The notes under the pieces are model-generated. The model ran no database searches, was not told the origin of the DNA, and worked only from the letters and a program-made list of their open reading frames with translations. From the NCBI GenBank assembly GCA_036277775.1, contig DASUMJ010000217.1:1-49031 (forward strand): a stretch of 49,031 bases of DNA. The letters are read 5' to 3'. A program made the translations under genes and the position numbers. The stretch's first letter is position 1; each line of letters begins with the position of its first letter. This stretch comes from Candidatus Limnocylindrales bacterium. Its GTDB lineage: Bacteria; Chloroflexota; Limnocylindria; Limnocylindrales; CSP1-4. This document shows, one piece after another, positions 229 through 22,080 of the stretch.

Positions 229-273
229 TTGACGCCGGACTGCAGCCCCTCGTATCCTCGATAATCGATGATC
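229..273 (+). promoter_or_regulatory. Promoter plus operator box A upstream of the SDR operon
   Basis: TTGACG (229-234), 18-nt spacer, TATCCT (253-258). The box TCGATAATCGATGATC (258-273) follows immediately. This is an AT-rich island in GC-rich DNA, and the same 21-nt string TATCCTCGATAATCGATGATC recurs at 16984-17004. Confidence 0.7.
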
Positions 274-349
274 TGTCGACGCTCCGCGCGGCGCGAGGCG
301 CCCCCGACGACGGACGTGACACGGGACCACCGCCCCGGAGGGACGACGC

Positions 350-1201
350 ATGCGCGACGAGGCAGCCACGCCCCCTGACGAGGAGGTCCGACGCGAGGGC
401 GAGCCGGCCGCTGCCTTCGCACCCGACGCCCGCTTCCGCCTCGACGGTCGCGTCGCGCTCATCGCCGGTGGCGGCGGCGCCATCGGCTCGGCGATCGGAG
501 CGGCATTCGCCGGCGCCGGCGCCCGCGTGGTCGTCGTCGATCGGACCCCGGACCGCGCTGCCGAGTCGGCGGAGCGGGCCTGCGCGCTCGGTGGCATCTG
601 CAAGGGCGTGACTGCGGACCTGACCGACGAGGCCGATGCGGAACGGATCGTGCAGGAGGCGGTCGATGCCTTCGGCCGGCTCGACATCATCGTGAACGCC
701 GTGGGTGGGGGCGCCGGCAAGGTCCTGTTCGACGCTGAGGTCTACCCGCGCGATGCCTGGGACTGGATCTTCGAGCTGAACGTGCGGAGCACCCTCGTCG
801 CGACGCAACCCGCCGTCCGCGCGATGATCGCCGGTGGTCGTGGCGGCCGGGTTCTCAACATCAGCTCGGTCCGGGCGTCGCTCGGGATCAACGCCGGCTA
901 CTCCGCCTACGTCGCTGCGAAGGGGGCCGTCAGCTCGCTCACCCGCCAGTGGGCGACGGAGTGGGCCAAGCACGGCATCACCGTCAACGCCATCGCCCCG
1001 ACGTTCGTCGACACGCCGCAGGTCGCGATGCTGCTCGGGGATCCAGCATTCAAGGCCGGGATCGTCAGCCGGATTCCGCTCGGCCGGGTCGGCACGACGG
1101 CCGACCTCACCGGCCCGGCGCTCTTCTTCTGTTCCGATGCCGCGGGCTTCGTCACCGGCCAGATCCTCGGGATCGACGGTGGCCTGACCGCGACGCAGTA
1201 G
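350..1201 (+). CDS. SDR family NAD(P)-dependent oxidoreductase
   Basis: GGAGGGA lies 6 nt before the ATG. It has the Rossmann motif 'IAGGGGAIGSAIG', 'IVNAVG', and the catalytic YxxxK 'YSAYVAAKGAV'. Confidence 0.93.
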   Translation: MRDEAATPPDEEVRREGEPAAAFAPDARFRLDGRVALIAGGGGAIGSAIGAAFAGAGARVVVVDRTPDRAAESAERACALGGICKGVTADLTDEADAERIVQEAVDAFGRLDIIVNAVGGGAGKVLFDAEVYPRDAWDWIFELNVRSTLVATQPAVRAMIAGGRGGRVLNISSVRASLGINAGYSAYVAAKGAVSSLTRQWATEWAKHGITVNAIAPTFVDTPQVAMLLGDPAFKAGIVSRIPLGRVGTTADLTGPALFFCSDAAGFVTGQILGIDGGLTATQ

Positions 1202-1219
1202 CCCGGAGGACCTGGTCCG

Positions 1220-2131
1220 ATGCTCGAGGCCGTCTCGATGATGGAATCGGTGACGCCGAACGTCTTCACGACGACGAAGCTCCGGGGCTGCAACCCGAGC
1301 TTCGTCACGACCGCCGACGGCGTCGTCGTGATCGACACGCCACAGCTGCCGACGAAGGCCGTCGCGATGCGGGCCGAGGCCGAGTCCCACGGACCGATCC
1401 GCTACCTCGTCAACACCGAACATCACGTCGATCACATCTTCGGCAACTACTTCTTCAAAGGTGCCGGCCGGGTCGTCAACCACCGGGGCCTGTACGAGCG
1501 GTTCATGGTCGTGTTCCCCGAGCTCGATCCGTTCGCCTACGCGTATGAGTCGGTGCCCGGCGACAACCCGAAGGGGACCGACCTCGACGCCCCCGAGGCA
1601 CTTGCGCTCTGGCCCGATCGCGACGAGTACTACCGCGACCCGAACAAGGGAACGATCATCTTCACCGGCGACCTGACGCTGCGGGTCGGCGACCACACCT
1701 TCAACTGCCTGCACACGCCCGGCCATACGCCCGGCCAGCTGGCCGTCCACGTTCCTGAGGAGCGGGTCGTCTTCACCGGGGACACGATCTTCTCCGGCTG
1801 CCAGACGTGGCTGATGACCTCGGACGTCCCGCAGTGGCTCGAGGCCCTCGAGCGGATCCGGACCCTCGATGTCGACTGGATCGTGCCGGGCCACGGCCCG
1901 GTCGTCTCGAAGCAGTACCTCGACGTCCAGCGCTCCCACCTCCTCGAGTGGACGAGTGCCGTCGCCGCCGCGATCGCGAAGGGCTGGAGTCGCGAGGAGA
2001 CGATGGCCAGGGTGCACTTCCGGGACCGCTTCGGGCCGGTCGACATCGGGCAGGGCTACATGCTCGACTACATCCAGACGCGGAACGCCGGTGCCCTCTA
2101 CGACAAGCTGACGGCACCCGCCGGCGCCTGA
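1220..2131 (+). CDS. MBL-fold metallo-hydrolase
   Basis: It has the HxHxDH motif 'EHHVDHIFGN', downstream metal ligands 'HTPGHTPG' and 'VPGHGP', and a GGAGGA RBS. Confidence 0.9.
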   Translation: MLEAVSMMESVTPNVFTTTKLRGCNPSFVTTADGVVVIDTPQLPTKAVAMRAEAESHGPIRYLVNTEHHVDHIFGNYFFKGAGRVVNHRGLYERFMVVFPELDPFAYAYESVPGDNPKGTDLDAPEALALWPDRDEYYRDPNKGTIIFTGDLTLRVGDHTFNCLHTPGHTPGQLAVHVPEERVVFTGDTIFSGCQTWLMTSDVPQWLEALERIRTLDVDWIVPGHGPVVSKQYLDVQRSHLLEWTSAVAAAIAKGWSREETMARVHFRDRFGPVDIGQGYMLDYIQTRNAGALYDKLTAPAGA

Positions 2132-2178
2132 ACGGCGCATCACCCGATTCTGAGCCGGCAGGCAGGAGTGCCGCTGCG

Positions 2179-4368
2179 GTGAGCCTCGTCTACGACTGCG
2201 ACCATCGCCACGACCGGCCGGCCGCCGAGGTCACCGCCCTCGTGGGCGGAAAGGCCGCCAACCTCGCGATCATGGCCGGCGACCTCGGGTTGCCCGTGCC
2301 GCCGGCCTTCACTGTCACGACCGAGGCCTGCCGCGAGTACCTGGCCACGGGCTGGCCGCCGAGCCTCGACATGGAGCTTCGCGAACGCATGGCCCGCATG
2401 GAGGAGTTGGCCGGGCACAGCTTCGGCGACCCCGCCGACCCACTCCTCGTGAGCGTTCGGTCCGGGGCGCCGGTGTCCATGCCCGGGATGATGGACACGA
2501 TCCTGAACCTCGGACTCAACGACGCCACGACGGCCGGCCTCGCGGCCGCTTCGGGCAGCCCCCGCTTCGCGGCCAACTGCCGCGAGCGCTTCGAGACGAT
2601 GTTCCGCGAGACCGTCGGGGTCGCCGAGATTCCCGCCGACCCGTGGCAGCAGCTTCGGGCCGCGATCGAGGCCGTCTTCCGATCGTGGAACGGCGATCGC
2701 GCCCGCGCCTACCGGCAACGCGAGGGCATCCCGGACGACCTCGGTACCGCGGTGACGGTCCAGGCCATGGTCTACGGGAATCGCTCGGTCGACTCGGCGA
2801 CCGGTGTGCTGTTCACTCGCAACCCCGCGACCGGCGAGCCCGTGCTCTACGGCGACATCCTCTTCAATGCCCAGGGCGAGGACGTCGTGGCGGGAACCCA
2901 TCCGACCGAGCCGATCTCGGTCCTCGGCGAGCGCATGCCGGCGGTGGCGCGGGAGCTTCGCGCTGCGGCGGATCGACTCGAGCGCCACCACGCGGACCTC
3001 TGCGACATCGAATTCACGATCGAGCACGGTCGCCTGTGGCTCCTCCAGTGCCGCATCGGGAAGCGGAGCCCGCGGGCGGCGCTGCGGATCGCGCGCGACA
3101 TGGCCGAGACCCCGGACTTCCCGCTGACGCGGGCCGAGGCCGTCGCGCGGGTTGCCCACCTCCTCGCCGACCCACCGCGGATCGCGATCGACCCCGTAGG
3201 CGTGACGCCGATCGCGACCGGCCTGCCCGCCTCGCCGGGCCGCGCCGGTGGCGACCTGGTCGTGACTCCCGAGGGCGCCATCGCCGCGGCGGAGGCCGGT
3301 CGCGCCGTCATCCTGGCCCGCGCGGAGACCTCGCCCGACGACGTCCACGGCATGGCCGTCGCCGCCGGCATCCTCACCTCGACCGGCGGGCTCGCCAGCC
3401 ACGCGGCGGTGGTGGCGCGGGGCTGGGCGATCCCGGCGGTGGTCGGGGCTCGTGAGGTGCGAGTCGATGGCGACGGCATCGAGGTCGCCGGGCGTCGCTT
3501 CGACCTCGGCGCGGCGATCACGGTCGACGGCGACACCGGCGAGGTCTTCGCCGGCCTCATCGACGGGGCGTACGTCGTGGTCCCCGAGGCCCCGGTCCTC
3601 CGGGCCTGGGCCGACGAGCTCGGGATTCCGGTCGGCGGCCAGCCCGCATCGCCGTCACCGGTCGCTGGGGCGAGGGAAGACGAAGCCCACGACGCGGCAC
3701 GCGACGGTTCACTCGAGTCCCCGCCCGCGCCGGGCGAGGCGGTGCTCGAGCTGCTGACCGATGACGTGCTGACGATGCTCCTCGTGAAGGGCTACACGAC
3801 GGCCGAAGGCGCAGCCGTGGCCCTCGCCACCGGTGTCGACCGAGCGACAGCGGCGATCGATGCCCTCGTGGCGGACGGGCTCGCGGAACCGGCGGCGGGC
3901 GCGTTCCGGCTGACTGCCGAAGGACGCGAACGGGCTCGCGCGGCGGTTGCCCGGACCGCCGCCGCGTGGGGTCCGGCAGCCGCCGCCGCCGCGCTCGATG
4001 CCTTCTTGGCCCTCGACCAGCGAATGAAGGCGACCGTCACCCACTGGCAGGTCCGCGAGGACGGCGACGAGCAGGTCCTGAACGACCACACCGACCCCGA
4101 GTACGACGCCGGCGTGCTCGCGGAGCTGTCCTCCCTTCACGCCGATGCGATCGAGTGGCTGGGACCGGTCGCCGAGGGCCTCCCTCGGCTCCGGACCTAC
4201 GTCGACCGCCTCGAGCGGGCGTTCGCCGCCGCCCGCGCCGGAGACGGTCGGTACGTCGCCTCGCCGCGGGTCGACAGCTATCACGGCTGCTGGTTCGAGC
4301 TCCACGAGGACCTCATCCTCCACGCCGGCCGGACGCGGGCGGACGAGGTCGCGGCCGGTCGGGCGTGA
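2179..4368 (+). CDS. Pyruvate,phosphate dikinase-like protein: ATP-grasp nucleotide domain plus phosphohistidine swivel domain, no PEP/pyruvate TIM barrel, and a winged-helix-like C-terminal region
   Basis: The start is trimmed to the in-frame GTG at 2179 (GCAGGAG 10 nt upstream), because the longer ORF overlaps the MBL gene. The N-terminus 'VYDCD..LVGGKAANLAIMAGDLGLPVPPAFTVTTEACREYL' matches PPDK_N. The swivel motif is 'TSTGGLASHAAVVARGWAIPAVVG'. The last ~230 aa ('LLVKGYTTAEGAAVALATGVDRATAAIDALVADGLAE..FRLTAEGRERA') look like a MarR-type wHTH rather than the TIM barrel. Confidence 0.85.
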   Translation: MSLVYDCDHRHDRPAAEVTALVGGKAANLAIMAGDLGLPVPPAFTVTTEACREYLATGWPPSLDMELRERMARMEELAGHSFGDPADPLLVSVRSGAPVSMPGMMDTILNLGLNDATTAGLAAASGSPRFAANCRERFETMFRETVGVAEIPADPWQQLRAAIEAVFRSWNGDRARAYRQREGIPDDLGTAVTVQAMVYGNRSVDSATGVLFTRNPATGEPVLYGDILFNAQGEDVVAGTHPTEPISVLGERMPAVARELRAAADRLERHHADLCDIEFTIEHGRLWLLQCRIGKRSPRAALRIARDMAETPDFPLTRAEAVARVAHLLADPPRIAIDPVGVTPIATGLPASPGRAGGDLVVTPEGAIAAAEAGRAVILARAETSPDDVHGMAVAAGILTSTGGLASHAAVVARGWAIPAVVGAREVRVDGDGIEVAGRRFDLGAAITVDGDTGEVFAGLIDGAYVVVPEAPVLRAWADELGIPVGGQPASPSPVAGAREDEAHDAARDGSLESPPAPGEAVLELLTDDVLTMLLVKGYTTAEGAAVALATGVDRATAAIDALVADGLAEPAAGAFRLTAEGRERARAAVARTAAAWGPAAAAAALDAFLALDQRMKATVTHWQVREDGDEQVLNDHTDPEYDAGVLAELSSLHADAIEWLGPVAEGLPRLRTYVDRLERAFAAARAGDGRYVASPRVDSYHGCWFELHEDLILHAGRTRADEVAAGRA

Positions 4369-5168
4369 ACGCGGCCACCGTGCCCCGCGGGATCGGCGTG
4401 ACGCTGGCCGACGGCCGCTTCGTCGTGACGGGTGCCTCGAGCGGACTTGGCGCGGCGATCGTCCGGCACCTCGCCCTCCTCGGCGCACCGATCGTGGCAG
4501 CGGCACGCCGGATCGACCGGCTGGAGGCCCTCGCGGCGGAGCTCGAGGCGGCCCCCGGTCGGGTCGTCCCGGTGCGGGCCGACGTCACCGACGAGGACGA
4601 CGTGGCGGCGCTCATCGAGGCGGCAGTGAAGGCCCTCGGCGGCATCGATGTCCTCGTGAACAACGCCGGCAGCGAGGTCCAGGGCCCGATCGACACGCTG
4701 CCGGACGAGGCCTTCGAGGGCATGCTGAGGGCGAACGTCCTGAGCATCGTGCGCGTGACGCGGGCCGCCCTCCCGGCGCTCCGCGAATCCCGCGGGATGG
4801 TCGTCAATCTCGGCTCGACGGTCGTCAGCCGCCCTCCTCGCAACCGCTTCGGCTACGTCGCGAGCAAGGGTGCGGTCGAGGCGATGAGCCGGGCCCTCGC
4901 GCTCGACCTCGGCCGGGAAGGCATCCGGGTCAACGTCATCCGGCCCGGGATCATCCCGTCCGAGCTCCGGGGCCTGTCCGAGGACGAGGAGCGGGCTCGT
5001 TTCGCGACCGGGGTCGCGTTCGGACGGCAGGCCCTGTCGGTGGTCGGGGATGGTCGTGACGTCGCCGAGGCAGTGGCATGGCTCGCCGGACCGGGCGGGC
5101 GCTGGATCACGGGGGCCGTGATCGACGTGGACGGGGGCTACGTGCTTGGGGCGGCTGACGCGATCTGA
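4365..5168 (+). CDS. SDR family oxidoreductase
   Basis: The GTG start overlaps the upstream stop (GTGA at 4365-4368). Motifs are 'VVTGASSGLGAAIVRHL', 'NNAG' and the YxxxK 'YVASKGAVEAM'. Confidence 0.9.
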   Translation: MNAATVPRGIGVTLADGRFVVTGASSGLGAAIVRHLALLGAPIVAAARRIDRLEALAAELEAAPGRVVPVRADVTDEDDVAALIEAAVKALGGIDVLVNNAGSEVQGPIDTLPDEAFEGMLRANVLSIVRVTRAALPALRESRGMVVNLGSTVVSRPPRNRFGYVASKGAVEAMSRALALDLGREGIRVNVIRPGIIPSELRGLSEDEERARFATGVAFGRQALSVVGDGRDVAEAVAWLAGPGGRWITGAVIDVDGGYVLGAADAI

Positions 5169-5210
5169 CCCTCGGGGGTGTCGGGCGCGGCCTCGAGCCG
5201 TGCGGCAGGG

Positions 5211-6266
5211 TCAGTCCGGGGCGACGATGATCTTGATGGCGCCGCTGCCTCGGTCGTTGAACGTGCTGAGGGCCTCCTGGTAGGCCGACAGCGGGAAGCG
5301 ATGGGTGATGACCTCGTTGACCCGGATCCGCCCCTGCTCCACGAGGGGCATGACGCGGCGCATCTCGCCGGCCGTCGCCCGTGATCCGACGAGCTCCAGC
5401 TCGTCGAGGACGAGCCGCTGCAGTGCGATCTCCACACCGCTGGTCGGGATGCCGACGGCAGCGCAGCGGCCGCCCCGGCGGAGCATGCGGATCGCCCAGC
5501 CGATCGTCTCGGGCGTCCCGGCGCACTCAAGCACGACGTCCGCCCCGACACCGGTCAGCTCCCGAACGGCTTGGACCGGGTCGCCGTCGGCAGTGTCCAC
5601 GGTCTCGGAGCCCATGGCGGCCGCCTTGGCAAGTCGCCCGCCACGGCCGACGACGATGACCCGTGCGGCACCCCGGACGCGGGCGGCGTCGGCTCCGAGC
5701 AGTCCGATCGCACCAGCGCCGGTGATGGCGACGGTGTCGCCCGGGGAGATCCCGCCGCGGTTCGCGACGTGGAGGGCGATCGACGCCGGGTCGACGACCG
5801 CGCCGGCCTCGAAGCTCAGGCCATCGGGGAGCCGGAAGATCGTCTTGATCCCCTGGACGACGTACGTCGCGTCGGCGCCCTGGACGGTGTGGCCGTACTG
5901 CTTGTGGAGTCCCGCCACCCCGTAGTTCTCGCAGAGGTTGTAGCGGCCCTCGACGCACTTCTGACAGGCGCCGCAGGCGTCGTGGCTGGTGCCCGCCACG
6001 CGGTCGCCCACCCGCCACCCGTACCGGTCGGCGCCGGGACCCAGCTCGACGAGCTCGCCGGCCCACTCGTGGCCCGGGGTGAACGGGAAGGCCGGCGGCC
6101 AGAAGCCCGGGTAGTCGCCGCGGATGAGATGGGCGTCGGTGCCGCAGATCGAGACCGCCCGGACCCGGGCTCGGACCTCGTTGAACCCGGGGCTCGGTAC
6201 CGGGACTTCCCGGATCTCGAAGCGGTTCGGCTCGAGGACGACGAGCGCCTCCATGGTCTCGGGCAC
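5211..6266 (-). CDS. Zinc-dependent alcohol dehydrogenase (MDR family, sorbitol/threonine-DH-like)
   Basis: It has the catalytic Zn motif 'GHEWAGELVELG', the structural Zn cysteines 'CGACQKCVEGRYNLC', and the Rossmann motif 'ITGAGAIGLLG'. Confidence 0.93.
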   Translation of the reverse strand: MPETMEALVVLEPNRFEIREVPVPSPGFNEVRARVRAVSICGTDAHLIRGDYPGFWPPAFPFTPGHEWAGELVELGPGADRYGWRVGDRVAGTSHDACGACQKCVEGRYNLCENYGVAGLHKQYGHTVQGADATYVVQGIKTIFRLPDGLSFEAGAVVDPASIALHVANRGGISPGDTVAITGAGAIGLLGADAARVRGAARVIVVGRGGRLAKAAAMGSETVDTADGDPVQAVRELTGVGADVVLECAGTPETIGWAIRMLRRGGRCAAVGIPTSGVEIALQRLVLDELELVGSRATAGEMRRVMPLVEQGRIRVNEVITHRFPLSAYQEALSTFNDRGSGAIKIIVAPD

Positions 6267-6281
6267 GGGCCGGCCTCCTCC

Positions 6282-7169
6282 TCAGACGACGGCGACGGGG
6301 TCGACCATCGACCCGGTCGCGCCGCGGATCTTCACGGGCAGGGCGACGAACAGGAACTCGTAAAGTCGCTGGCTTGCGAGCGCCTCGAGGTCGAGGCTCT
6401 CGAGCAGGTAGATCCCGTTCTCGATGAGCAGCAGCGTGTGGACCGGCTGGGGGTTGCCGGTGGGGCCGGGATCCGGGGCCGGCTGGACCTCGTAGGTCTC
6501 GGTGTCCGTCCCGGTCGCGACGATCCCGCGTTCCAGGAGCCAGCGCGCGGCGGAGATGTCCGGGCCGGGCGTCCGGTGGGCGGCCATCCGCTCGGCGTCG
6601 GGCCACAGCGACATGTAGCCGGTCCGGATGACCACGACGTCCCATGGCCGGACCTCGACACCTTCCGCGTCCGCGATCGCCTCCAGCTCCGCCGCGTCGA
6701 TCGGGGCGCCCCTCGGCAGGCAGGCCAGGCCCCGGTGGCCCGCCGCGTCGAGGAGCACGCCCCGGGTGAAGAACGGCGGCAGCGTCGAGGCGTCGAGGTG
6801 GTTCGGGCCGAAGTCCGTCAGGTGGTCGTCTGCCCGTCCCCCGCCGAACCAGTGCATGTCCTCGCCGACGGTCATGTGGGCGAGCGCGTCGACGTGAGCG
6901 CCGGAGTGGGACGTCGCCATGACGTACTCGGCCATGTAGCCGAGACCCGCGTCGTTGACTGGTCCCCATGGGCGGGCGCCGGTGACGCGGATGCCGCGCG
7001 GGGTCCGGGCGTTGAGGACCTGGAACGGCGGGTGCCCGGGGAAGAGCGGCATGCCGGGGAACCGCGCCGCGGCGAGCGAGATCGTCCGGCCCTCGCGGAC
7101 GAGACCCGCGGCGCGCACGACCTGGTCGGCGGGGAGTCGGCCGATCGGGCCGATGTCCGGGGCGGTCAT
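6282..7169 (-). CDS. Cyclase family protein (kynurenine formamidase / isatin hydrolase-like metal amidohydrolase)
   Basis: It has the HxGxHxDxxxH motif 'HSGAHVDALAHM'. The start overlaps the stop of the Mo subunit gene (ATGA at 7166-7169). Confidence 0.88.
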   Translation of the reverse strand: MTAPDIGPIGRLPADQVVRAAGLVREGRTISLAAARFPGMPLFPGHPPFQVLNARTPRGIRVTGARPWGPVNDAGLGYMAEYVMATSHSGAHVDALAHMTVGEDMHWFGGGRADDHLTDFGPNHLDASTLPPFFTRGVLLDAAGHRGLACLPRGAPIDAAELEAIADAEGVEVRPWDVVVIRTGYMSLWPDAERMAAHRTPGPDISAARWLLERGIVATGTDTETYEVQPAPDPGPTGNPQPVHTLLLIENGIYLLESLDLEALASQRLYEFLFVALPVKIRGATGSMVDPVAVV

Positions 7170-9457: not shown

Positions 9458-9984
9458 CGGGCTGCGTCCGGATCGCTGGCCGGCCCGTTTAGGAGCGTGT
9501 CATCAGCATGCCCGGCGGCGGCCAGCACGGCGCCCACGATCTGCTCGTAGCCGGCGCAGCGACAGAGATTGCCGGCGAGGCCCTCCTGGACCTCCGCGAC
9601 CGTCGGGTCGGCGATCCGGTCGAGGAGGTCCTGGGCCGCCATCAGTTGCCCAGGGATGCAGAAACCGCATTGGGCCGCGCCGCGGTCGAGGAAGGCCTGC
9701 TGAAGCCGGCTCAGCCTGGCCCCGTCCGCCAGGCCCTCGACCGTCGTCACGCTTCCGCCGTCGGCCTCGACCGCGAGGACGAGGCACGAGTCCACGATCC
9801 GGCCGTCCAGGCTGACGGTGCAGGCCCCGCACTCTCCGACGAGGCAGCACTCCTTCGTTCCGGTCAAGGCGAGATCGTCGCGGAGGACCTCAAGGAGCGT
9901 ATGGTGGGCGGCCACTTCGACGGCCCGACCCCGGCCGTTGACCGTCAGCTCGATCGCCACGCGGGTTTCTCCGGGCGCCGTCAC
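9454..9984 (-). CDS. (2Fe-2S)-binding small subunit of the Mo-hydroxylase
   Basis: Trimmed to the GTG at 9984, which overlaps the FAD subunit stop (GTGA). Two 2Fe-2S motifs are present: 'CLVGECGACTV' and 'CGFCIPG...CRCAGY'. Confidence 0.93.
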   Translation of the reverse strand: MTAPGETRVAIELTVNGRGRAVEVAAHHTLLEVLRDDLALTGTKECCLVGECGACTVSLDGRIVDSCLVLAVEADGGSVTTVEGLADGARLSRLQQAFLDRGAAQCGFCIPGQLMAAQDLLDRIADPTVAEVQEGLAGNLCRCAGYEQIVGAVLAAAGHADDTLLNGPASDPDAAR

Positions 9985-11761: not shown

Positions 11762-11783
11762 CGATTCCTTTCGCGTGGTGCGG

Positions 11784-12527: not shown

Positions 12528-12537
12528 CGTCGCGACG

Positions 12538-14316: not shown

Positions 14317-14419
14317 CGCAGTCTTCTCCTTCGGCTCGTGGCTCGCGTCGCCGGCCGGGCGACGTCTTCCGGCTCGTCCCTCGTCCGCGGCCCTGGCCGC
14401 GGCCCGCATCCGCCTCCCT

Positions 14420-15676
14420 TCAGCACCTCCCGGCCACGGCCGCCGGCAGGGGTTCGGCCCACACGCGATAGAGGTCGTCGAGGCGCTCGGCCATCGCGCG
14501 CCCGAACGCCGGGTCGTTGATATCGGTGGCCACCTCGACCACCTCGATGCCCGGGCGAAGCCCTGCCTTCAACTCCCGGGTCAGGGCTGCGTCGGCAGCC
14601 GGATCGTGGAACGGCCGCCCGGGGGCATCGAGCATCGACAGCCCGTCGCCTGGGACGAACACGACCAGCGGGCCGGTCGCCTCGTTCAGCTTCCGGGCCA
14701 GCACGCGACCGAGCTCCGCGCACTCCGCCTCGCTGGTCCGCATGAGCGTGACCGCGGCGTTGTGCTCCACGAGGGTGCGGCCGCGGAACCGGCGCGGGAC
14801 GGTGTCGAGCGGCCCGAAGTTCACCATGTCGAGGGCGCCGAGAGATACCACCTGCGGCAGTCCGAGTGTGCCGGCCGCTTCGAGCCGGTCGGGGCCGGCG
14901 GAGCAGACCCCGCCGACGAGGTCGTCGGCCAGCTCGCTCGTGGTCACGTCGAGGACACCGGTAATGACGCCTGAACGGATGAGGTCCTCCATGGCGCGTC
15001 CGCCCGTGCCGGTCGCATGGAAGACGAGGACCTCGTAGCCGCGCGACTCGAGGACCTCGCGGGCGGCGGTCACGCAGGGTGTCGTCACGCCGAACATCGT
15101 CGCCCCGATGCATGGTCGGCCGTCGGGTCGGTCGTCGGCTCGCGAGGCTTGCCGGGCCATGCCGGCGGTGGCGGCGGCAGCGTTGGCGAGGACCCGGCGC
15201 GAAATTCGGTTGAGCCCGGCGATGTCGACGATCGAGTGCATGAGCGTGACGTCACTCGTGCCGACATACGGCCGCGTGTCGCCGGAGGCCATCGTCGAGA
15301 CGAGGAGCTTCGGGACACCGATCGGGAGGGCGCGCATGGCCGCGGCCACGAGCGCGGTGCCGCCGGAGCCGCCGAGCCCGGCGATGGCGTCGAGTCGGCC
15401 TTCAGCATGGAGCTGCCGGACGACCTCGATCGCACCGCGTGTCATCGACGCAATCGCGTGCCCCCGGTCGCCGCCGGCAGCGAGGGCGGTCCGGTCGGCC
15501 CCGCCGGCGGCTGCCACGACGTCCGACGAGACGTCCGCAAGCGATGACGGTTCGAGGACACCCGCGTCCACGAGGATGGTGTCGCATCCGGCCCTGCGAA
15601 CCTCGTCCCGCACGAAGCGGAACTCGGGACCCTTGGTATCGAGCGTGCCCAGGAGGACGACCGTGGCCACGTGCAT
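14420..15676 (-). CDS. UPF0261 / Tm-1-like ATP-binding domain protein
   Basis: 'MHVATVVLLGTLDTKGPEFRFVRDEV' matches the family N-terminus (GTxDTKG). An alternative GTG start at 15670 lies 6 nt after GGAG. The 817-aa ORF in the track is an artefactual extension that runs antisense through the transaldolase gene. Confidence 0.85.
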   Translation of the reverse strand: MHVATVVLLGTLDTKGPEFRFVRDEVRRAGCDTILVDAGVLEPSSLADVSSDVVAAAGGADRTALAAGGDRGHAIASMTRGAIEVVRQLHAEGRLDAIAGLGGSGGTALVAAAMRALPIGVPKLLVSTMASGDTRPYVGTSDVTLMHSIVDIAGLNRISRRVLANAAAATAGMARQASRADDRPDGRPCIGATMFGVTTPCVTAAREVLESRGYEVLVFHATGTGGRAMEDLIRSGVITGVLDVTTSELADDLVGGVCSAGPDRLEAAGTLGLPQVVSLGALDMVNFGPLDTVPRRFRGRTLVEHNAAVTLMRTSEAECAELGRVLARKLNEATGPLVVFVPGDGLSMLDAPGRPFHDPAADAALTRELKAGLRPGIEVVEVATDINDPAFGRAMAERLDDLYRVWAEPLPAAVAGRC

Positions 15677-15700: not shown

Positions 15701-15750
15701 TCGATAATCGATTGTCGATGACAGTAGCCCCGATGCCGGGGACGCGTCAA
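15701..15750 (-). promoter_or_regulatory. Promoter plus operator box B for the minus-strand nine-gene operon
   Basis: Read on the minus strand: TTGACG (15750-15745), 18-nt spacer, TACTGT (15726-15721), then the 18-bp near-palindrome TCGACAATCGATTATCGA (15718-15701), which has one mismatch. Confidence 0.65.
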
Positions 15751-15776: not shown

Positions 15777-15806
15777 TTGCCACTGAACAATCGATGATCG
15801 ATGATA
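15777..15806 (+). promoter_or_regulatory. Promoter plus operator box C upstream of transaldolase
   Basis: TTGCCA (15777-15782) is followed by the box TCGATGATCGATGATA (15791-15806), which overlaps the expected -10 position. The box contains the 13-bp palindrome ATCGATgATCGAT. Confidence 0.55.
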
Positions 15807-15835
15807 CAAGGAACGATACCCCGGAGGTGACGGTC

Positions 15836-16933
15836 ATGGTGGTCGCGGCGGCGCTCGACAGCCCCCTCCTGCAGATGACCCAGGAGACGCGCACCCAGTA
15901 CTGGAACGACTCCTGCGCGGTGGACGAGCTCGCCTACGCCGTCGAGCGCGGGGCCACCGGTGCGACGTCGAACCCCAGCATCGTCCTCGAGGTCCTCCGG
16001 AAGGAGCGAGCGTACTGGGCCCGCCGCGTCGAGCAGCTCGCCGAAGCGGAGCCGACCGCCTCGGAGGTGGACCTCACCTGGGCAGTCGTCGAAGAGATGG
16101 CTGTGCGCGGCGCCGCCGTGCTCGGGCCGGTCCATGAGCGGACCAAGGGCAAGGCCGGCCGCCTCTCGCTGCAACTCAACCCTGCCAACCACCGCAACCC
16201 GAAACGGATGGTCGAGCAGGCCGTTCGATTCCACGGTCTCGCGCCGAACATGCAGGTGAAGTTCCCCTGCACGGCCGCGGGCATCGTCGGGATGGAGGAG
16301 GCGACGGCCCAGGGCATCAGCATCAACTCGACCGTCAGCTTCACGGTGCCCCAGGCGCTCGCCGCCGCGGAGGCTGTGGAGCGCGGCCTCACCCGTCGCG
16401 AGTCCGCCGGCCTCGACACGTCCTCGATGTCGCCGATCGTGACGATCATGATCGGCCGGCTCGACGACTGGTTGAAGGTCGTCGTGGAACGTGACCGCCT
16501 GTCCGTCCACCCCGACGCGGTGAACTGGGCCGGGATCGCGGCGTTCAAGCGGACGTATGCCCTCTTCCGCGAGCGGGGCTACCGATCCCGCTTGCTCGCG
16601 GCGGCCTATCGTCACCGGCTCCACTGGACCGAGCTCGTCGGCGGCGACGTGAGCTTGACGATGCCCCATGCCTGGCAGGTCCGGTTCAACGCCAGCGGCA
16701 TCCGGCCCGAGCCACGGATGGACGTCCCGGTCGACGCCGACCTCATCGAGGATCTCGAGCAGCGGATCCCCGACTTCCGTCGGGCCTACGAGCCCGATGG
16801 GCTGGCGCCCGAGGCGTTCGAAGGCTTCGGGGCGAGTGCCCGGACACTCCGCGCCTTCATTGCCGCCTATCACGACCTCCAGGGCGCGATCCGGGACCTG
16901 GTCCTCCCCGATCCCGACGCTCCGAGCCGCTGA
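15836..16933 (+). CDS. tal: Transaldolase family protein
   Basis: Start set to ATG 15836 (GGAGGTG 6 nt upstream). It has the 'GATGATSNPSIV' motif and the Schiff-base lysine context 'MQVKFPCTAAGI'. Confidence 0.9.
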   Translation: MVVAAALDSPLLQMTQETRTQYWNDSCAVDELAYAVERGATGATSNPSIVLEVLRKERAYWARRVEQLAEAEPTASEVDLTWAVVEEMAVRGAAVLGPVHERTKGKAGRLSLQLNPANHRNPKRMVEQAVRFHGLAPNMQVKFPCTAAGIVGMEEATAQGISINSTVSFTVPQALAAAEAVERGLTRRESAGLDTSSMSPIVTIMIGRLDDWLKVVVERDRLSVHPDAVNWAGIAAFKRTYALFRERGYRSRLLAAAYRHRLHWTELVGGDVSLTMPHAWQVRFNASGIRPEPRMDVPVDADLIEDLEQRIPDFRRAYEPDGLAPEAFEGFGASARTLRAFIAAYHDLQGAIRDLVLPDPDAPSR

Positions 16934-16958
16934 GGGGTGGCCGCGGTCGCGATCCCCG

Positions 16959-17004
16959 CGCTCCCGGCTTGCAAATTGCGGCCCTTGACCTACTATCCTC
17001 GATA
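16959..17004 (+). promoter_or_regulatory. Promoter plus operator box D upstream of the ABC transporter operon
   Basis: TATCCT (16984-16989) is fused to TCGATAATCGATGATC (16989-17004), a 21-nt string identical to site A. The candidate -35 TTGCAA (16959-16964) gives a long 19-nt spacer. Confidence 0.65.
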
Positions 17005-17091
17005 ATCGATGATCCGCCTCACCGGCGGAGATCGACGGTCAGTTCGTCCCAGAGTGGTGCGTCCCCTGCTCCGTTCGGAGGCGGTCGCGCG

Positions 17092-17205
17092 ATGACCAAC
17101 CGGCCAGTGTTCGATGGGGGCGACACGCGGAGCCCCATCGATCCCGCAGCGCCCTTGGCGGGCGGCGGGGAGAGGCCACGGCCACCGGTGCCGGCGGCCG
17201 GCTGA
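17092..17205 (+). CDS. Candidate 37-codon upstream ORF / leader peptide
   Basis: ATG 17092 has GGAGG 10 nt upstream. Its TGA stop overlaps the permease ATG (TGATG at 17203-17207). GC3 is high, but the peptide is Pro/Gly-rich and unrecognised. Confidence 0.3.
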   Translation: MTNRPVFDGGDTRSPIDPAAPLAGGGERPRPPVPAAG

Positions 17206-18077
17206 TGGAGTTCATCACCCAGAGCCTCGTCATCGGGCTCACCGAGCACGCCCCGCTGGTCCTTGCCGCGATCGGCTTCGCCCTGCTCTACCGCCTCACC
17301 GGTCTCATCAACGTCGCCTACTCGGAGACGATCACGCTCGGCGCGTACTTCGGGATGTGGGCCAACACGACGTTCGAGCTGAACTTCTACACGGTCCTCC
17401 TTCCCGCGGGGCTGCTCGCCGGGCTCGTGAGCGTGGCGAGCTATCTGCTGGTCTTCCGGCCCGCCAAGCAGCGCGGGGTGGGCGTGCTGGAGCTCATCAT
17501 CATCTCGTTCGGGCTGTCGATCTTCCTGCGGCACGGCCTCCAGTTCATCTTCGGCTACCCCGTCCGTTTCTACGACGTCCCGCCACCCGACACGATCCCG
17601 GTTCTCGGCGTCGGCGTCAGCTCGTTCCGGCTGCTCGCCCTCGTCAGCGTCGCCGTGCTGGCACTGCTGCTCTACCTGTTCATCCAGCGTTCCAGCCTCG
17701 GCCTCAAGATCCGGGCCCTGGCCAGCGACGAGGGCCTGGCCCAGGTGAGCGGCATCCGGCCGCTCGTGGTGACGGTCCTGATCTGGTTCATCGCCGGTGT
17801 CGCGGGCGGGCTGGCCGGCGCCTTCTACGGCGTCGGGTCGAACGTTGCGCCGCTGCTCGGCTGGCGCCAGTTCCTGATGATCCTGATGGTCGCGCTCGTG
17901 GGCGGAACGTGGGGGCTGGGCGGGGTCATCCTCGTCGGGGTCGGCACGAGCGTGGCGCTGGCTGCCATGGCGCTCCAGTTCGACCAGGTCCTGTATGCGC
18001 AGCTGGTGCTGATCGTCGCGTTCGTCGTCGTCCTGAAGATCCGTGGGCGGCGGGTCGCCGAGACGGCGAAGGTGTAG
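17205..18077 (+). CDS. Branched-chain amino acid-type ABC transporter permease (LivH-like)
   Basis: 290 aa, polytopic and hydrophobic. 'ITQSLVIGLTEHAPLVLAAIGFALLYRLTGLINVAY' is typical of the BPD_transp_2 family. Confidence 0.9.
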   Translation: MEFITQSLVIGLTEHAPLVLAAIGFALLYRLTGLINVAYSETITLGAYFGMWANTTFELNFYTVLLPAGLLAGLVSVASYLLVFRPAKQRGVGVLELIIISFGLSIFLRHGLQFIFGYPVRFYDVPPPDTIPVLGVGVSSFRLLALVSVAVLALLLYLFIQRSSLGLKIRALASDEGLAQVSGIRPLVVTVLIWFIAGVAGGLAGAFYGVGSNVAPLLGWRQFLMILMVALVGGTWGLGGVILVGVGTSVALAAMALQFDQVLYAQLVLIVAFVVVLKIRGRRVAETAKV

Positions 18078-18081
18078 GCAG

Positions 18082-19032
18082 ATGAACCTCGACTGGCTCG
18101 ACGCCTTCCTGATCACCGGGCTGTTCCAGGTCGTGATGGTGATCGGCCTCGGGCTGCTCCTCCATCTCCAGCTGGGGCTCGCCCGAATCGCCAACTTCGG
18201 CGTCGTCGGGTTCTGGGGCCTCGGGATGTACGCCTTCGGCGTGCTGTACGTCCGGGTCGACTGGCCGTTCGGGGAGCCTTGGCAGTTCCTCGTCTGCGCC
18301 GCCGCCGCAACGCTCATCGCCGGCCTCGCCGGACTCCTCGTCGGCTGGCTGATCGCCGACCTCGACACCGACGGCGTGCTCGTGGGCACACTCGGGTTTG
18401 CTACCGCGGTCCAGCTCCTGGCGACGACCGAGGACGACCTCACCGGCGGCGCGCGCGGCATGGGGGGACTCGGCTTCCCGTACGACATCGGCCGGGTCAA
18501 GGAGGACGAGCTGCTGTGGCTGGTGATCACGGCGGTCGTCGTCGTCGCGATCTTCCTTTATGCCTGGCGGGTCCACCGCTCGCCCTACGGGCGGCTACTC
18601 ATCGCCGTCGGTGGCAACGAGCCCCTGACCCGCAGCCTCGGGAAGTCGACATTCCGAGCCAAGCTCTGGCTGTTCACCGTCACGTCGGCTGCGATGGGCC
18701 TCCTCGGCGCGATGAACGGGGTCATGGTGCGCTACCTCGACATCGGCAACGTGGGGGTCGGCGTCACCCTCGCCGCGATGGTCGGGCTCGTGCTGGGCGG
18801 CACCGCACGCGTCTGGGGAGCGGTGGTCGGGGTGATCCTCACCGTGGGGCTGTTCGACATCGTGGTCCAGTCCTACCTGCCGCTCCCCCAGGATTGGTAC
18901 ACGCAGGCGATCCCGGTCCTGCGGGAGGCCGCGTTCGGCCTGACCCTGATGGTCGTCCTGCTGTTCCGGCCGCTCGGCCTGCTCGGGGACATGCGGCGCG
19001 ACGAGCTGATGCGGAAGCTCCATGGTCGCTGA
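18082..19032 (+). CDS. Branched-chain amino acid-type ABC transporter permease (LivM-like)
   Basis: Trimmed to ATG 18082, 4 nt after the LivH-like stop. The protein is hydrophobic and polytopic, and is the second permease of the Liv-type order. Confidence 0.9.
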   Translation: MNLDWLDAFLITGLFQVVMVIGLGLLLHLQLGLARIANFGVVGFWGLGMYAFGVLYVRVDWPFGEPWQFLVCAAAATLIAGLAGLLVGWLIADLDTDGVLVGTLGFATAVQLLATTEDDLTGGARGMGGLGFPYDIGRVKEDELLWLVITAVVVVAIFLYAWRVHRSPYGRLLIAVGGNEPLTRSLGKSTFRAKLWLFTVTSAAMGLLGAMNGVMVRYLDIGNVGVGVTLAAMVGLVLGGTARVWGAVVGVILTVGLFDIVVQSYLPLPQDWYTQAIPVLREAAFGLTLMVVLLFRPLGLLGDMRRDELMRKLHGR

Positions 19033-19816
19033 AGCCGCCGACGCGCCGGCCATCACCCGTCCCCGGCTTCGCGTGAAAGGGGCGGTGAAGAGCTTCTCGG
19101 GTCGCATCGTCGTGGACGTCGACGATCTCGTCCTCGGCGACCGGCCGATCGAGGGCCTCATCGGCCCAAACGGTGCCGGCAAGACGACGCTGATGCGCAT
19201 GATCATGCACTCGACCTCGCTCGATCGGGGCACCATCTCGCTCCTGCCGAGTGACGGTGGCGAAGTGGTCCTGTCGACGCTGCCGGCCTACCGGCTGGCG
19301 CGCCTCGGCGTCGTCAAGAGCAACCAGGTGATCATGGACTTCCCCAAGCTGACCATCTGGGACTCGCTCCTGCTCGCGGTCGCCGGGTCCCGGTACGAGC
19401 AGCCGCACCGGATCTTCAGTGAACGAGCGGTCTTCGAGCAGCACGAGTCCGAGATCCGGCAGTACCTCGACTACTTCGGGTTCAGGGACCCGACGCTGTA
19501 CGCGATGTCGGCCGGCGAGAAGAAGCTCCTCGACATCGTCCGCTGCCTGCTCCTGAAACCCAGGTTCCTCCTGCTCGATGAGCCCACGGCCGGCCTGCCT
19601 GCCGACCTGACCGACAAGGTCATGGCCGTGGTCCGGGACCTGGCGGCGGCGGGGACGTCGGTCGTGGTCGTCGAGCACGACCTCAACGTCATCTGGAACC
19701 TCTGCGACGAGGTCCTCTTCATGGCCGAGGGCAGCGTCATCCTGCGCGGCGACCCCAAGACGATCCGCGAGAACCGGACCGTCGTCGAAAAGTACCTCGG
19801 AGAGGGCCATGTCTGA
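19022..19816 (+). CDS. ABC transporter ATP-binding protein (LivG-like)
   Basis: It has Walker A 'GPNGAGKTT', the signature 'MSAGEKKLL' and Walker B 'LLLDEPTAGL'. It overlaps the upstream gene by 11 nt. Confidence 0.92.
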   Translation: MVAEAADAPAITRPRLRVKGAVKSFSGRIVVDVDDLVLGDRPIEGLIGPNGAGKTTLMRMIMHSTSLDRGTISLLPSDGGEVVLSTLPAYRLARLGVVKSNQVIMDFPKLTIWDSLLLAVAGSRYEQPHRIFSERAVFEQHESEIRQYLDYFGFRDPTLYAMSAGEKKLLDIVRCLLLKPRFLLLDEPTAGLPADLTDKVMAVVRDLAAAGTSVVVVEHDLNVIWNLCDEVLFMAEGSVILRGDPKTIRENRTVVEKYLGEGHV

Positions 19817-20525
19817 GATGGCCCGACCCGTCACCCTCGAGGTCCAGGGGTTGCGCAGCGGCTACCACGGGGTCACCGTCCTCAAAGGCCTCGACTTCAG
19901 CGTCGGCGACGAGATCTTCGCGATCCTGGGAGCCAACGGTGCCGGCAAGACGACGCTGCTCGCGACGCTGGCGCGGCTCATCCCCCTCATGGCCGGGTCG
20001 ATCCGGTTCCAGGGCGAGGACGTGTCGGCGCTGCCGCCGTACGAGACCGCGAGTCGGGGGGTTGGCTACGTGCCCCAGGAGAAGGGCACCTTCGCCGACC
20101 TCAGTGTCATCGAGAACCTCAACATCGGCGGAATGATCGGCCGGCGCCCGCGCGATGAGCGGCTGGCCGAGGTCTTCGAGCTGTTTCCCGCCCTGAAGGA
20201 GCACCAAGCCCAGCCCGCGGGCACGCTCAGCGGGGGTGAGTCACGGATGCTGGCGTGCGCGCGGGCCCTGATGCAGGACCCGAAGGTGTTGCTGCTCGAC
20301 GAGCCGACGGCCGGACTGTCGCCCCTCTACGTCGAGATGTTCTTCGAGAAGGTCAGGGAGATCCACGAGTCCCGGGGGGTCGCCATCGTCCTTGCCGAGC
20401 AGAACGCCACGAAGGCGCTCCAGGTGGCCGACCGGGTGATGGTCCTGAGCCTCGGTGAGGCATTTGCGGTGATGCAGGCATCTGATCTGACAACCCAGCA
20501 GCTCAAGGAGGGATACCGGATCTGA
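19809..20525 (+). CDS. ABC transporter ATP-binding protein (LivF-like)
   Basis: It has Walker A 'GANGAGKTT', the signature 'LSGGESRML' and Walker B 'LLLDEPTAGL'. An alternative in-frame ATG lies at 19818. Confidence 0.92.
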   Translation: MSEMARPVTLEVQGLRSGYHGVTVLKGLDFSVGDEIFAILGANGAGKTTLLATLARLIPLMAGSIRFQGEDVSALPPYETASRGVGYVPQEKGTFADLSVIENLNIGGMIGRRPRDERLAEVFELFPALKEHQAQPAGTLSGGESRMLACARALMQDPKVLLLDEPTAGLSPLYVEMFFEKVREIHESRGVAIVLAEQNATKALQVADRVMVLSLGEAFAVMQASDLTTQQLKEGYRI

Positions 20526-20564
20526 CGTACCGCGCAAGAGTTAGCAAGGATGAGGAGGAACGGA

Positions 20565-21959
20565 ATGACGGTCGGTAGAACGAACTGGGCCCGCACCATG
20601 ATCGGGATCACGGTGCTTGCCCTGGCCGCCGGCGCATGCGGCGGCGGCAGCAGCGCGTCGCCCGACACATCGGCGGTCGCCACGGGCACGCCGGGCACGA
20701 CCGAGCCGCCCTCGACCGAGCCCGTGGTGGTCTGCGAGCTGGCGTACTACACCGGCTCGTTCGCCGCCTACGGCAAGTCGCTCACCGAGGACGTGGCCTT
20801 CCCGATCAACGAGGTCATCAACGAGGACCCGCCGCTGGGCCGGACCTGGACCCTCGTGTCGGAGGACATCGGGGATGACAAGGAAGGCCAGGCGGCGAAG
20901 ACCTGTCTCGAGCAGCGCGGCGCCGAGATCGTCGTGAGCATCGCGCACCAGTACCGGACGTACCGCGAGTACATGATGGAGTACTGGCAGGACAACGACT
21001 CGCCGCTCGGGCCGTCGGTCCACGGCGGGGCCATCCCCGCCAACCTCGGCGGGAAGGCGGCGGAGCCGATCTTCCGCGCACAGGGCCTCGACGAGGCGCT
21101 CGGCATGTCCGGGATCCTGTATGCCGAGACGATCAACGCCGAGAAGATCGTCATCTTCGCCACGCAGGTCGAGGGCTTCCAGCTCGCGGCGAATGCGGCG
21201 GAGAAGGCCGCCGAGGCCGTCGGCATGGAGGTCCTGGCACGAATCGACGTTCAGGCGGAGCAGGCGTCCTACGGCGCCGAAGCCCAGCGGATCGCCACGC
21301 TCGACCCGGACGCCGTCATCGTCCAGGCCGGGTCGGTCGAGTCGGCCGCCCTGATCAAGGCGGCAGCCGAGGCCGGCCTGTCGCTCAACTGGATCGGCGA
21401 AACCGGGTGGATCCAGACCGAGTTCATCGGCACGCTGGGCACCGAGCCCATTGCCTCGCAGAAGGGGATCGGCTTCGCGGCGTTCTCGTACGACGACACC
21501 ACCCCGGCCTGGGACTTCTTCTCGGAGGCATGGACGAACGCGGATCACACAGCGCCCGAGGACGAGGACCCGAAGGGCCTCTACCACTTCTCGACCTACG
21601 ACCTGCTCGTCCAGACGGCCCTGGCCGTCGAGTGGGGCGGGTCGTACAAGGCGAGCGACTGGGCGCCCGCCATGCACGAGGTCGGCGAGGCCCCCGGTGA
21701 GGTCTGCTACACGTATGCCGAGTGCCTGGAGCTCATCCGGGCCGGAACGGACGTGGACTACGAGGGAATCACCGGCAACGGCACCTACACCGACGGTGGC
21801 GTGAACCACGTCGTCCAGTCGTACACACCGTTCGGACTCGACGGCAAGGCCGGCACGCCGGTCATCCTCGACGCCGAGCGGGCGATCGAGATCATGGAGC
21901 AGATCGTGACCAGGGCGGAGTGCGAGCCCGAGGATCCGCCCAACGAGTGTGAGTGGTAA
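20565..21959 (+). CDS. ABC transporter substrate-binding lipoprotein (type I periplasmic-binding fold, Liv family)
   Basis: ATG 20565 lies 6 nt after GAGGAGG. The lipobox is 'LALAAGAC-GG'. The size and gene context fit a Liv-type solute-binding protein. Confidence 0.88.
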   Translation: MTVGRTNWARTMIGITVLALAAGACGGGSSASPDTSAVATGTPGTTEPPSTEPVVVCELAYYTGSFAAYGKSLTEDVAFPINEVINEDPPLGRTWTLVSEDIGDDKEGQAAKTCLEQRGAEIVVSIAHQYRTYREYMMEYWQDNDSPLGPSVHGGAIPANLGGKAAEPIFRAQGLDEALGMSGILYAETINAEKIVIFATQVEGFQLAANAAEKAAEAVGMEVLARIDVQAEQASYGAEAQRIATLDPDAVIVQAGSVESAALIKAAAEAGLSLNWIGETGWIQTEFIGTLGTEPIASQKGIGFAAFSYDDTTPAWDFFSEAWTNADHTAPEDEDPKGLYHFSTYDLLVQTALAVEWGGSYKASDWAPAMHEVGEAPGEVCYTYAECLELIRAGTDVDYEGITGNGTYTDGGVNHVVQSYTPFGLDGKAGTPVILDAERAIEIMEQIVTRAECEPEDPPNECEW

Positions 21960-21989
21960 GGGCGGGCGACAGTCCGTCGACCTGATGAA

Positions 21990-22024
21990 GGGGTCCTCCC
22001 GCCACCCGGCGGAGGACCCCTTTT
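21990..22024 (+). terminator. Rho-independent terminator after the ABC operon
   Basis: GGGGTCCTCCCGCC-ACC-CGGCGGAGGACCCC forms a 13-bp stem with one bulge, followed by TTTT (22021-22024), 30 nt after the stop. Confidence 0.8.
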
Positions 22025-22036
22025 CCATCCCGCCTC

Positions 22037-22080
22037 TTGACCGGGGAATCCATCGTGCCTATTCTCGATAATCGATTATC
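22037..22080 (+). promoter_or_regulatory. Promoter plus operator box E upstream of the cupin/transketolase operon
   Basis: TTGACC (22037-22042), 17-nt spacer, TATTCT (22060-22065). This is fused to TCGATAATCGATTATC (22065-22080), which contains the perfect 14-bp palindrome GATAATCGATTATC (22067-22080). Confidence 0.75.

Follow-up and report, generated by a model that had tools for sequence, protein, structure and literature searches.

A palindromic box at five promoters of a Chloroflexota gene cluster is a candidate operator of FadR-subfamily GntR repressors

Introduction

What regulates a cluster of apparently catabolic genes when the same short palindrome stands in front of each of its transcription units? 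We address this question for a contig of a Candidatus Limnocylindrales bacterium of the phylum Chloroflexota (GenBank assembly GCA_036277775.1, contig DASUMJ010000217.1), in which an AT-rich palindromic box recurs at five sites. The window, meaning the whole stretch of DNA that was analyzed, comprises 49,031 bases with a GC content of 72%. A preliminary description of this DNA had proposed that the box is a polymerase-occluding operator that joins five promoters and about 25 genes in one regulon, with two GntR paralogs or a DeoR regulator as the candidate repressors. The analysis presented here makes it a well-supported conclusion, at the level of sequence comparison, that one candidate operator ties five promoters and 22 genes into one local repressor regulon. 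We consider it likely that an FCD-type (FadR-subfamily) GntR repressor uses the box as its operator, namely GntR1, which is encoded in one of the box-controlled operons, and that very probably its paralog GntR2 does so as well.

Results

A perfect 11-bp palindrome is present at five intergenic sites

The perfect 11-bp palindrome TCGATNATCGA is found at each of the five sites (258-268, 15701-15711, 15791-15801, 16999-17009 and 22065-22075), and there are no further perfect copies in the 49,031 bases. When up to one mismatch is allowed, the contig contains 12 matches against 2.6 expected, a number that was reached by none of 100 shuffled sequences. The preliminary description had placed a 16-mer, TCGATAATCGATKATC, at all five sites. 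Three copies are exact (258-273, 16999-17014 and 22065-22080; shuffled sequences contain none), whereas the other two differ from it by one mismatch (15701-15716, TCGATAATCGATTGTC) and two mismatches (15791-15806, TCGATGATCGATGATA), and it is the 11-bp palindrome that all five share. The copy formerly given as 16989-17004 was off by 10 and is at 16999-17014. Likewise, the 21-nt string TATCCTCGATAATCGATGATC is indeed identical at two of the sites, although its second copy is at 16994-17014 and not at 16984-17004; the first is at 253-273. A perfect 14-bp palindrome, GATAATCGATTATC, is present in the last copy as described, at 22067-22080. Gene calls based on GC at the third codon position (GC3) and Pfam annotation place all five sites in intergenic DNA, and the sites rank 1, 2, 4, 5 and 7 in AT-richness among the 30-nt windows of the contig, both in agreement with the earlier account.

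The 11-bp unit has the form TCGAT-N-ATCGA, and a second, weaker unit is found at a 7-bp offset in most sites. The ideal site is an 18-bp palindrome, TCGATAATCGATTATCGA, made of two 11-mers offset by 7 bp. In the 18-bp ideal derived from the aligned non-redundant sites, TCGAYAATCGATTATCGA, the arm AATCGATTATCGA is almost invariant and the other arm is weaker. The 18-mer units TCGATAATCGA and TCGATTATCGA share four bases, which sets their centres 7 bp apart. The five boxes are as follows.

Box 1, 258..273: TCGATAATCGA at 258-268 plus a partial second unit; promoter of the SDR operon
Box 2, 15701..15718: the 18-mer TCGATAATCGATTGTCGA; directly 3' of the minus-strand promoter of the nine-gene operon
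Box 3, 15784..15801: TGAACAATCGATGATCGA, with the perfect 11-mer at 15791-15801; in the spacer/-10 region of the transaldolase promoter
Box 4, 16999..17014: TCGATAATCGATGATC; overlaps the last base of the -10 hexamer TATCCT (16994-16999)
Box 5, 22065..22080: TCGATAATCGATTATC, including the perfect 14-bp palindrome at 22067-22080; cupin/transketolase promoter

Every box meets a predicted -10 hexamer

The position of the box relative to the predicted promoters is compatible with repression. At four promoters a TTGxxx hexamer, a 17- to 18-nt spacer and a TAnnnT hexamer lie directly ahead of the box, much as the preliminary description had noted for four cases. At the transaldolase promoter the box occupies the spacer and overlaps the predicted -10, upstream of the start point. 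The predicted -10 hexamer is abutted or overlapped by the box at 5/5 promoters, and it abuts the box in related loci too.

Site 1: TTGACG 229-234, 18-nt spacer, TATCCT 253-258
Site 2, minus strand: TTGACG 15750-15745, 18-nt spacer, TACTGT 15726-15721, followed by the box
Site 3: TTGCCA 15777-15782, 17-nt spacer, GATGAT 15800-15805; the box lies within spacer and -10
Site 4: TTGCAA 16970-16975, 18-nt spacer, TATCCT 16994-16999
Site 4, alternative: TTGACC 16985-16990, 17-nt spacer, GATGAT 17008-17013, with the box filling the spacer
Site 5: TTGACC 22037-22042, 17-nt spacer, TATTCT 22060-22065

Such intimacy with the promoter raises the question of whether the box could be a part of the promoter itself, as an extended or alternative-sigma element, or a hairpin of the 5'-leader RNA, rather than the operator of a protein. 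The box touches the -10, would be transcribed at four promoters and is self-complementary. However, its position relative to the -10 varies, being downstream at four promoters and in the spacer and -10 at the transaldolase gene, where it would be mostly untranscribed. It is found in both orientations relative to transcription, other promoters in the contig are without it, and an Rfam scan of the window gave no match. Furthermore, related clusters that are without a GntR gene (see below) retain the same genes and yet drop the box. We regard a promoter element or leader hairpin as highly improbable, the least probable of the explanations weighed here.

The five units contain 22 genes

Gene calls by codon-position GC, with annotation by Pfam and NCBIfam, bear out the five controlled units named in the preliminary description, but the number of genes is 22 (4+9+1+5+3) and not about 25.

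Unit 1 (operon 1), 350..5168, plus strand, four genes
350-1201, plus: SDR
1220-2131, plus: metallo-beta-lactamase fold protein
2179 or 1807 (start) to 4368, plus: PPDK_N and PEP-utilizers protein
4365-5168, plus: second SDR
Unit 2 (operon 2), 5211..15676, minus strand, nine genes transcribed right to left
14420-15676, minus: UPF0261 kinase-family protein, first gene
12538-14409, minus: 623-aa protein with a C-terminal PEP-utilizers mobile domain
11784..12527, minus: GntR1, GntR winged helix-turn-helix (wHTH) plus FCD, inside the box-controlled operon
10859-11761, minus: 300-aa protein with no family match
9981-10859, minus: molybdenum (Mo)-hydroxylase FAD subunit
9454-9960, minus: Mo-hydroxylase 2Fe-2S subunit
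7166-9457, minus: Mo-hydroxylase molybdenum cofactor (MoCo) subunit
6282-7169, minus: cyclase-family protein
5211-6266, minus: Zn-dependent alcohol dehydrogenase (ADH), last gene
Unit 3, 15827..16933, plus: transaldolase
Unit 4, 17205..21959, plus strand: Liv-type ABC importer, five genes
17205-18077 and 18082-19032, plus: importer permeases
19022/19085-19816 and 19809-20525, plus: importer ATPases
20550-21959, plus: importer binding protein
Unit 5, 22122..24342, plus strand: cupin and split transketolase
22122-22490, plus: cupin
22487-23392 and 23389-24342, plus: split transketolase

The gaps between the genes of operon 2 are at most 22 nt.

The box is conserved upstream of orthologous units in related loci

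Related loci, extending up to 10 kb to either side of the query gene, were collected by scanning GTDB (one genome per species) with the UPF0261 protein and metagenomes with the 623-aa protein. The GTDB scan returned mostly non-orthologous paralogs, the best match of the UPF0261 protein among the GTDB species genomes being 70% identical. The only fully syntenic loci were L001 and L011, from Chloroflexota metagenome-assembled genomes (MAGs) with 70-83% protein identity; L002, from a Thermomicrobiaceae MAG, is partly related. The metagenome scan provided 80 loci at 65-87% identity, most of them with the same gene set. At least 578 relatives were found with the PEP-utilizer protein, and of 8,000 candidates scored in a search with GntR, 4,111 proteins had E <= 1e-20. 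Soil, sediment and wetland metagenomes are rich in both the cluster and the GntR.

Most of the related loci have the box, as do nearly all whose retrieved DNA covers the upstream region. It was counted upstream of the PEP-utilizer/UPF0261 operon (67 instances), of transaldolase (33) and of the cupin-transketolase unit (13), and it is also found upstream of the first permease of the ABC importer or of EamA or DUF1097 membrane proteins, ahead of the SDR operon and, in several loci, ahead of GntR2. Orthologs of all five units therefore have an upstream box, and in dozens of loci the box has been retained upstream of the orthologous operons while the flanks have diverged. The divergent transaldolase/operon region, aligned across seven loci, gives the same impression: with a mean column identity of 40%, the invariant blocks are the two boxes and the -35 of the operon promoter (TTGAC), the operon -10 being only partly conserved.

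Coding DNA has far fewer copies of the motif. Across 816 kb of related loci, 90% of which is coding, there are 99 intergenic and 12 coding copies of the perfect 11-mer, a density about 70-fold higher in intergenic than in coding DNA. All 12 of the coding copies are the variant TCGATGATCGA. Several lie inside UPF0261 genes (L001:11036, L114:8964, L119:1450 and others) and several near the end of the cyclase gene (L094:12031, L128:13391, L145:10579, L150:14547). Because most of them are at conserved positions, in UPF0261 genes or at the cyclase/ADH junction, the coding copies probably reflect a conserved peptide rather than regulation. An unbiased count of 8-mers in the intergenic DNA of the relatives, with the window left out, ranked box fragments as the top and most enriched 8-mers: ATAATCGA with 101 intergenic copies and one coding copy, ATTATCGA with 74 and none, and AATCGATT with 56 and none. 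The earlier proposal of one regulon with a polymerase-occluding operator is supported by this conservation, by the intergenic density and by the contact with the -10 in the relatives. Two of the outcomes that the preliminary description had named as refuting it, a similar frequency inside coding DNA and a lack of conservation ahead of orthologous operons, are contradicted by these loci.

The genes adjacent to the box are not the same everywhere. In one subgroup of clusters the box is followed first by a gene for a DUF1097 membrane protein and then directly by the PEP-utilizer gene; other loci have an EamA transporter, an aldehyde dehydrogenase (L001:4999-6531) or a URO-D family gene (L118:12489-13640) as neighbours of the box. 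Because box-adjacent transporters and accessory genes differ between loci, the transporter and accessory content of the regulon varies. Examples of the DUF1097 genes, among others, are:

L142:5667-6380
L145:1539-2150
L151:2619-3191

FCD-type GntR genes accompany the box

The second FCD-type regulator of the window and its neighbour are located beyond the transketolase genes.

24360..25028, minus: GntR2, FCD-type paralog of GntR1, downstream of the C_GCAxxG_C_C gene
25105-25641, minus: C_GCAxxG_C_C family gene, upstream of GntR2, with which it probably forms an operon

Both regulators possess the GntR wHTH domain (PF00392; E = 1.8e-13 for GntR1 and 3.3e-13 for GntR2, both above the gathering score) and the FCD effector domain (PF07729; E = 1.2e-22 and 5.8e-26, respectively), and by domain content they belong to the FadR/FCD subfamily of the GntR family. 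Overall identity is 54%, yet the recognition helix is the same in both, within a common helix-turn-helix (HTH) stretch, ETRVARELGTSQAPVREALR. Among the GntR homologs of the related loci the helix hardly varies, which fits the near-invariant box; for the same reason a test for covariation of helix and box was uninformative.

Co-occurrence of gene and box points in the same direction. A GntR/FCD gene is the next gene after the PEP-utilizer gene in most loci and is the sole regulator found consistently inside the cluster. In the GntR-less cluster variants L142/L160 and L151 the homologous intergenic region is without a box, whereas L145 and L148, with the same architecture but with a GntR gene, do have the box. 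In L054, an actinobacterial MAG, a GntR only 41% identical is encoded next to the UPF0261 gene and keeps the TSQAPVREALR helix, and a box-like sequence, TCGAGAATCGATAGTCGA, lies upstream of the GntR-UPF0261 pair. L014 encodes an unrelated GntR with a VSRTPLREA helix and has no box. With regard to GntR2, its gene is divergent from the operon with the box in between in L001, L118 and L127, and L087, L090, L114 and L133 have boxes or near-boxes ahead of GntR2 or its C_GCAxxG_C_C partner. The C_GCAxxG_C_C/GntR2 pair is present as such in L114, with a degenerate box ahead of it. It is because of site conservation, genomic co-occurrence with GntR genes and the invariant helix that we assign the operator to the FCD-type GntR proteins.

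A DeoR-family regulator is a poor candidate for the binder

The contig encodes further regulators: the DeoR-family protein (25724-26530), a LuxR-hydrolase fusion and an anti-sigma factor. Only the GntR half of the former list of candidate repressors is well supported. If DeoR were the protein that binds the box and controls the whole cluster, its location would be apt, as it adjoins GntR2 in the window and in L115 and L133; furthermore, some DeoR-family operators, for example that of E. coli GlpR, have a TCGAT/ATCGA-like centre. However, a different conserved motif, GCAAGATTRTGCTA, is found upstream of DeoR in the window, L133 and L115, with no box alongside it in 3/3 cases. E1/E2 2-oxoacid dehydrogenase genes follow DeoR directly, and the window has no box at the DeoR/E1-E2 promoter. 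GntR2 has a neighbour other than DeoR in L001, L090, L118 and L127; adjacency to DeoR was seen in three loci, most of the others ending too early for a DeoR gene to come into view. Loss of the box follows loss of the GntR gene, contrary to what DeoR as the binder would imply. With a conserved motif of another kind ahead of its own gene, DeoR is in our judgement very unlikely to be the binder, although this places it as disfavoured only.

The short stretch between the C_GCAxxG_C_C gene and DeoR (25690-25720) contains the motif GCAAGATTATGCTACGATC, which is conserved upstream of DeoR in L133 and L115 and is probably a DeoR promoter or operator.

The box has the geometry of FadR-subfamily operators but not their consensus

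The operators of the FadR subfamily are A/T-rich palindromes with TKGT/ACMA boxes in which 2-3 nt, usually 3, separate GT from AC; many of them have a further, weaker half-site at 7-12 nt from the centre, and divergent regions have paired sites, each for its own operon (Suvorova et al. 2015, PMC4494728). Members of this subfamily such as E. coli FadR, PdhR, LldR and DgoR have the same domain pair, GntR wHTH plus FCD, as GntR1 and GntR2, and their genes adjoin or form part of the catabolic operon under their control, as does that of GntR1, whose operon is preceded by box 2. Their operators are odd-centred A/T-rich palindromes of about 11 bp, and the TKGT-N3-ACMA geometry is matched by the box unit. 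The second unit of the box, offset by 7 bp, is like the extra half-site of these operators, and the paired boxes of the divergent region and their repression-compatible position are also FadR-subfamily-like.

The half-site itself is different. Compared with TKGT/ACMA, the box fits in length, in symmetry and in the outer T..G and C..A, but the inner T/A of GT/AC has become A/T, so that a half-site TCGA(T) stands in place of TKGT and the GT/AC signature is replaced by GA/TC. There are exceptions within the subfamily: the motifs of BioR (TTATMKATAA) and NanR are without GT-N-AC (PMC4494728). They provide precedents for FCD-type GntR proteins with non-canonical motifs. The BioR motif is also an AT-rich palindrome, although it differs from the box in sequence and length, and BioR regulates biotin genes. 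The closest solved relative of GntR2 is a 'probable transcriptional regulator' of the GntR/FCD type, PDB 7xp0/7xp1 (E = 9e-20 over residues 11-207), a distant homolog that by sequence has the same two-domain fold family. The recognition helix of GntR1 and GntR2, TSQAPVREAL, corresponds to ISRGPLREAI in 7xp0, with Gln aligned with Arg.

Operators of the LacI family, for example the cre/CcpA and PurR boxes, have a central CG. An even palindrome of 14-18 bp can be drawn around a central CG in the box (GATAATCGATTATC), and the preliminary description had remarked on a LacI-like core in the absence of a LacI gene. The second part of that remark holds, as there is no LacI-family protein among the window open reading frames (ORFs) that were scanned with Pfam, and a LacI-type operator was rejected on this ground. 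The resemblance is superficial: unlike in LacI-family operators, the most conserved unit of the box is the odd-centred 11-mer, which is off that CG centre, and the geometry is that of the FadR subfamily.

Several observations weigh against the assignment of the box to the GntR proteins. The form TCGAT-N-ATCGA is without the GT/AC signature of the FadR-subfamily consensus. Three loci, L128/L129 and L144, show the box while the DNA retrieved for them contains no GntR gene; a GntR paralog may be encoded outside it. The 10-kb flanks leave room for a second, unlinked regulator. The joint absence of GntR gene and box comes from two independent lineages only, L142 and L160 being near-identical. In the window there is no box ahead of GntR2 with one mismatch or less, an ATCGAT at 25601 falling inside the C_GCAxxG_C_C gene. 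Finally, the promoter hexamers were assigned by consensus, in a phylum for which promoter mapping is scant.

The departure from the signature, the boxes with no GntR gene in view and the central CG of the palindrome could also be explained if the box were the operator of a regulator encoded elsewhere, of the LacI type or with another HTH, and the local GntR proteins bound something else. Yet the Pfam-scanned window ORFs include no LacI-family or other candidate for that role. The enriched intergenic 8-mers are almost all box fragments, leaving no other conserved palindrome to serve as the GntR site. GntR is the only regulator consistently within the cluster, and helix and box are both retained in L054 despite the low identity of its GntR. 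A regulator encoded elsewhere appears to us unlikely, and the local FCD-type GntR proteins are the more plausible binders.

Gene content of the cluster and its surroundings

The 623-aa protein is similar to the C-terminal portions of PigC, of RedH and of enzymes of the rifampicin phosphotransferase type. The UPF0261 family includes MarK, a kinase that uses ATP to phosphorylate the aromatic acetovanillone, and its activity is the first and only catalytic activity reported for the domain (PMC12624787). By analogy, and as speculation, the UPF0261 protein and the 623-aa protein hint that a phenolic or heteroaromatic compound may be phosphorylated. Many related loci have a PEP_hydrolase-like gene (PF09370, E about 1e-132; for example L114:9182-10021 and L119:1665-2504) between the UPF0261 and PEP-utilizer genes. 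This usual partner of UPF0261 is absent from the operon in the window, where the gap 14409-14420 is only 10 nt. The 300-aa protein (10859-11761) is present in nearly all related clusters at 66-85% identity, between the GntR1 and Mo-hydroxylase genes, and has no match in Pfam, in NCBIfam or in a PDB sequence search.

The remainder of the contig encodes the following.

30644-35257, minus: NiFe hydrogenase large and small subunits, cytochrome b561-type subunit and multihaem c-type cytochrome
35529-39136, plus: phosphoketolase (XFP) and then acetate kinase, with a 4-nt overlap
44009-45118, minus: alpha/beta-hydrolase fused to a LuxR/GerE HTH, divergent from the MttB-family gene
45279-46802, plus: MttB-family (trimethylamine methyltransferase-like) gene
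47151-48221, plus: bacterial serpin, after the MttB-family gene

The hydrogenase cluster looks to be of the uptake type and directly adjoins the catabolic island. With a phosphoketolase near transketolase and transaldolase, the contig concentrates several carbon-rearranging enzymes of the pentose-phosphate type.

Discussion

We present a model in which a dimer of an FCD-type GntR protein would bind the 11-bp palindrome at each of the five sites. Because the boxes adjoin or overlap the -10 hexamers and the expected transcription starts, the bound dimer would block RNA polymerase at the five promoters. By analogy with other FCD regulators, a substrate or intermediate of the pathway would bind the C-terminal FCD domain and release the repressor, and release would turn on all 22 genes together. 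The set that would be co-induced comprises the Liv-type importer, two kinase/dikinase-like systems, the molybdenum hydroxylase, dehydrogenases, transaldolase and transketolase. The location of GntR1 in a box-controlled operon implies autoregulation, such that GntR1 would repress its own synthesis. GntR2 shares the helix, but its effector domain has diverged, and it may bring in a second signal. What the sequences show directly is where the boxes lie relative to the predicted promoters, how well they are conserved and that they co-occur with GntR genes; binding, repression, the autoregulation of GntR1 and the existence and identity of an inducer are inferences from this record.

A more far-reaching scenario, which we offer tentatively and consider doubtful as a whole, combines regulation and metabolism. 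Two paralogous FCD repressors with an identical helix and differing ligand domains would share a non-canonical operator, and the cluster would open only in response to two different signals (or through a heterodimer). The 22-gene regulon would then represent an undescribed and environmentally widespread catabolic route, in which a phenolic or heteroaromatic compound undergoes ATP-dependent phosphorylation by the MarK-like UPF0261 kinase and the PEP-utilizer dikinase-like proteins and is processed via the molybdenum hydroxylase, the route ending in transketolase/transaldolase reactions.

As a regulator-operator pair the proposed system is conventional, an ordinary local gene switch. The regulon is unpublished, and a literature search for AATCGATT together with GntR, and for ATCGATTATCGA, returned only unrelated matches. 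The candidate pair would represent one more FCD regulator with a half-site that departs from the GT/AC rule. For the biology of these organisms, the box constitutes sequence-based evidence that the 22 genes of an uncharacterised pathway act together, and it provides a simple handle for scanning the genomes of uncultured Chloroflexota and Actinomycetota for further members of the pathway. The GntR protein would offer, via ligand screening, a route to the inducer and hence to the substrate.

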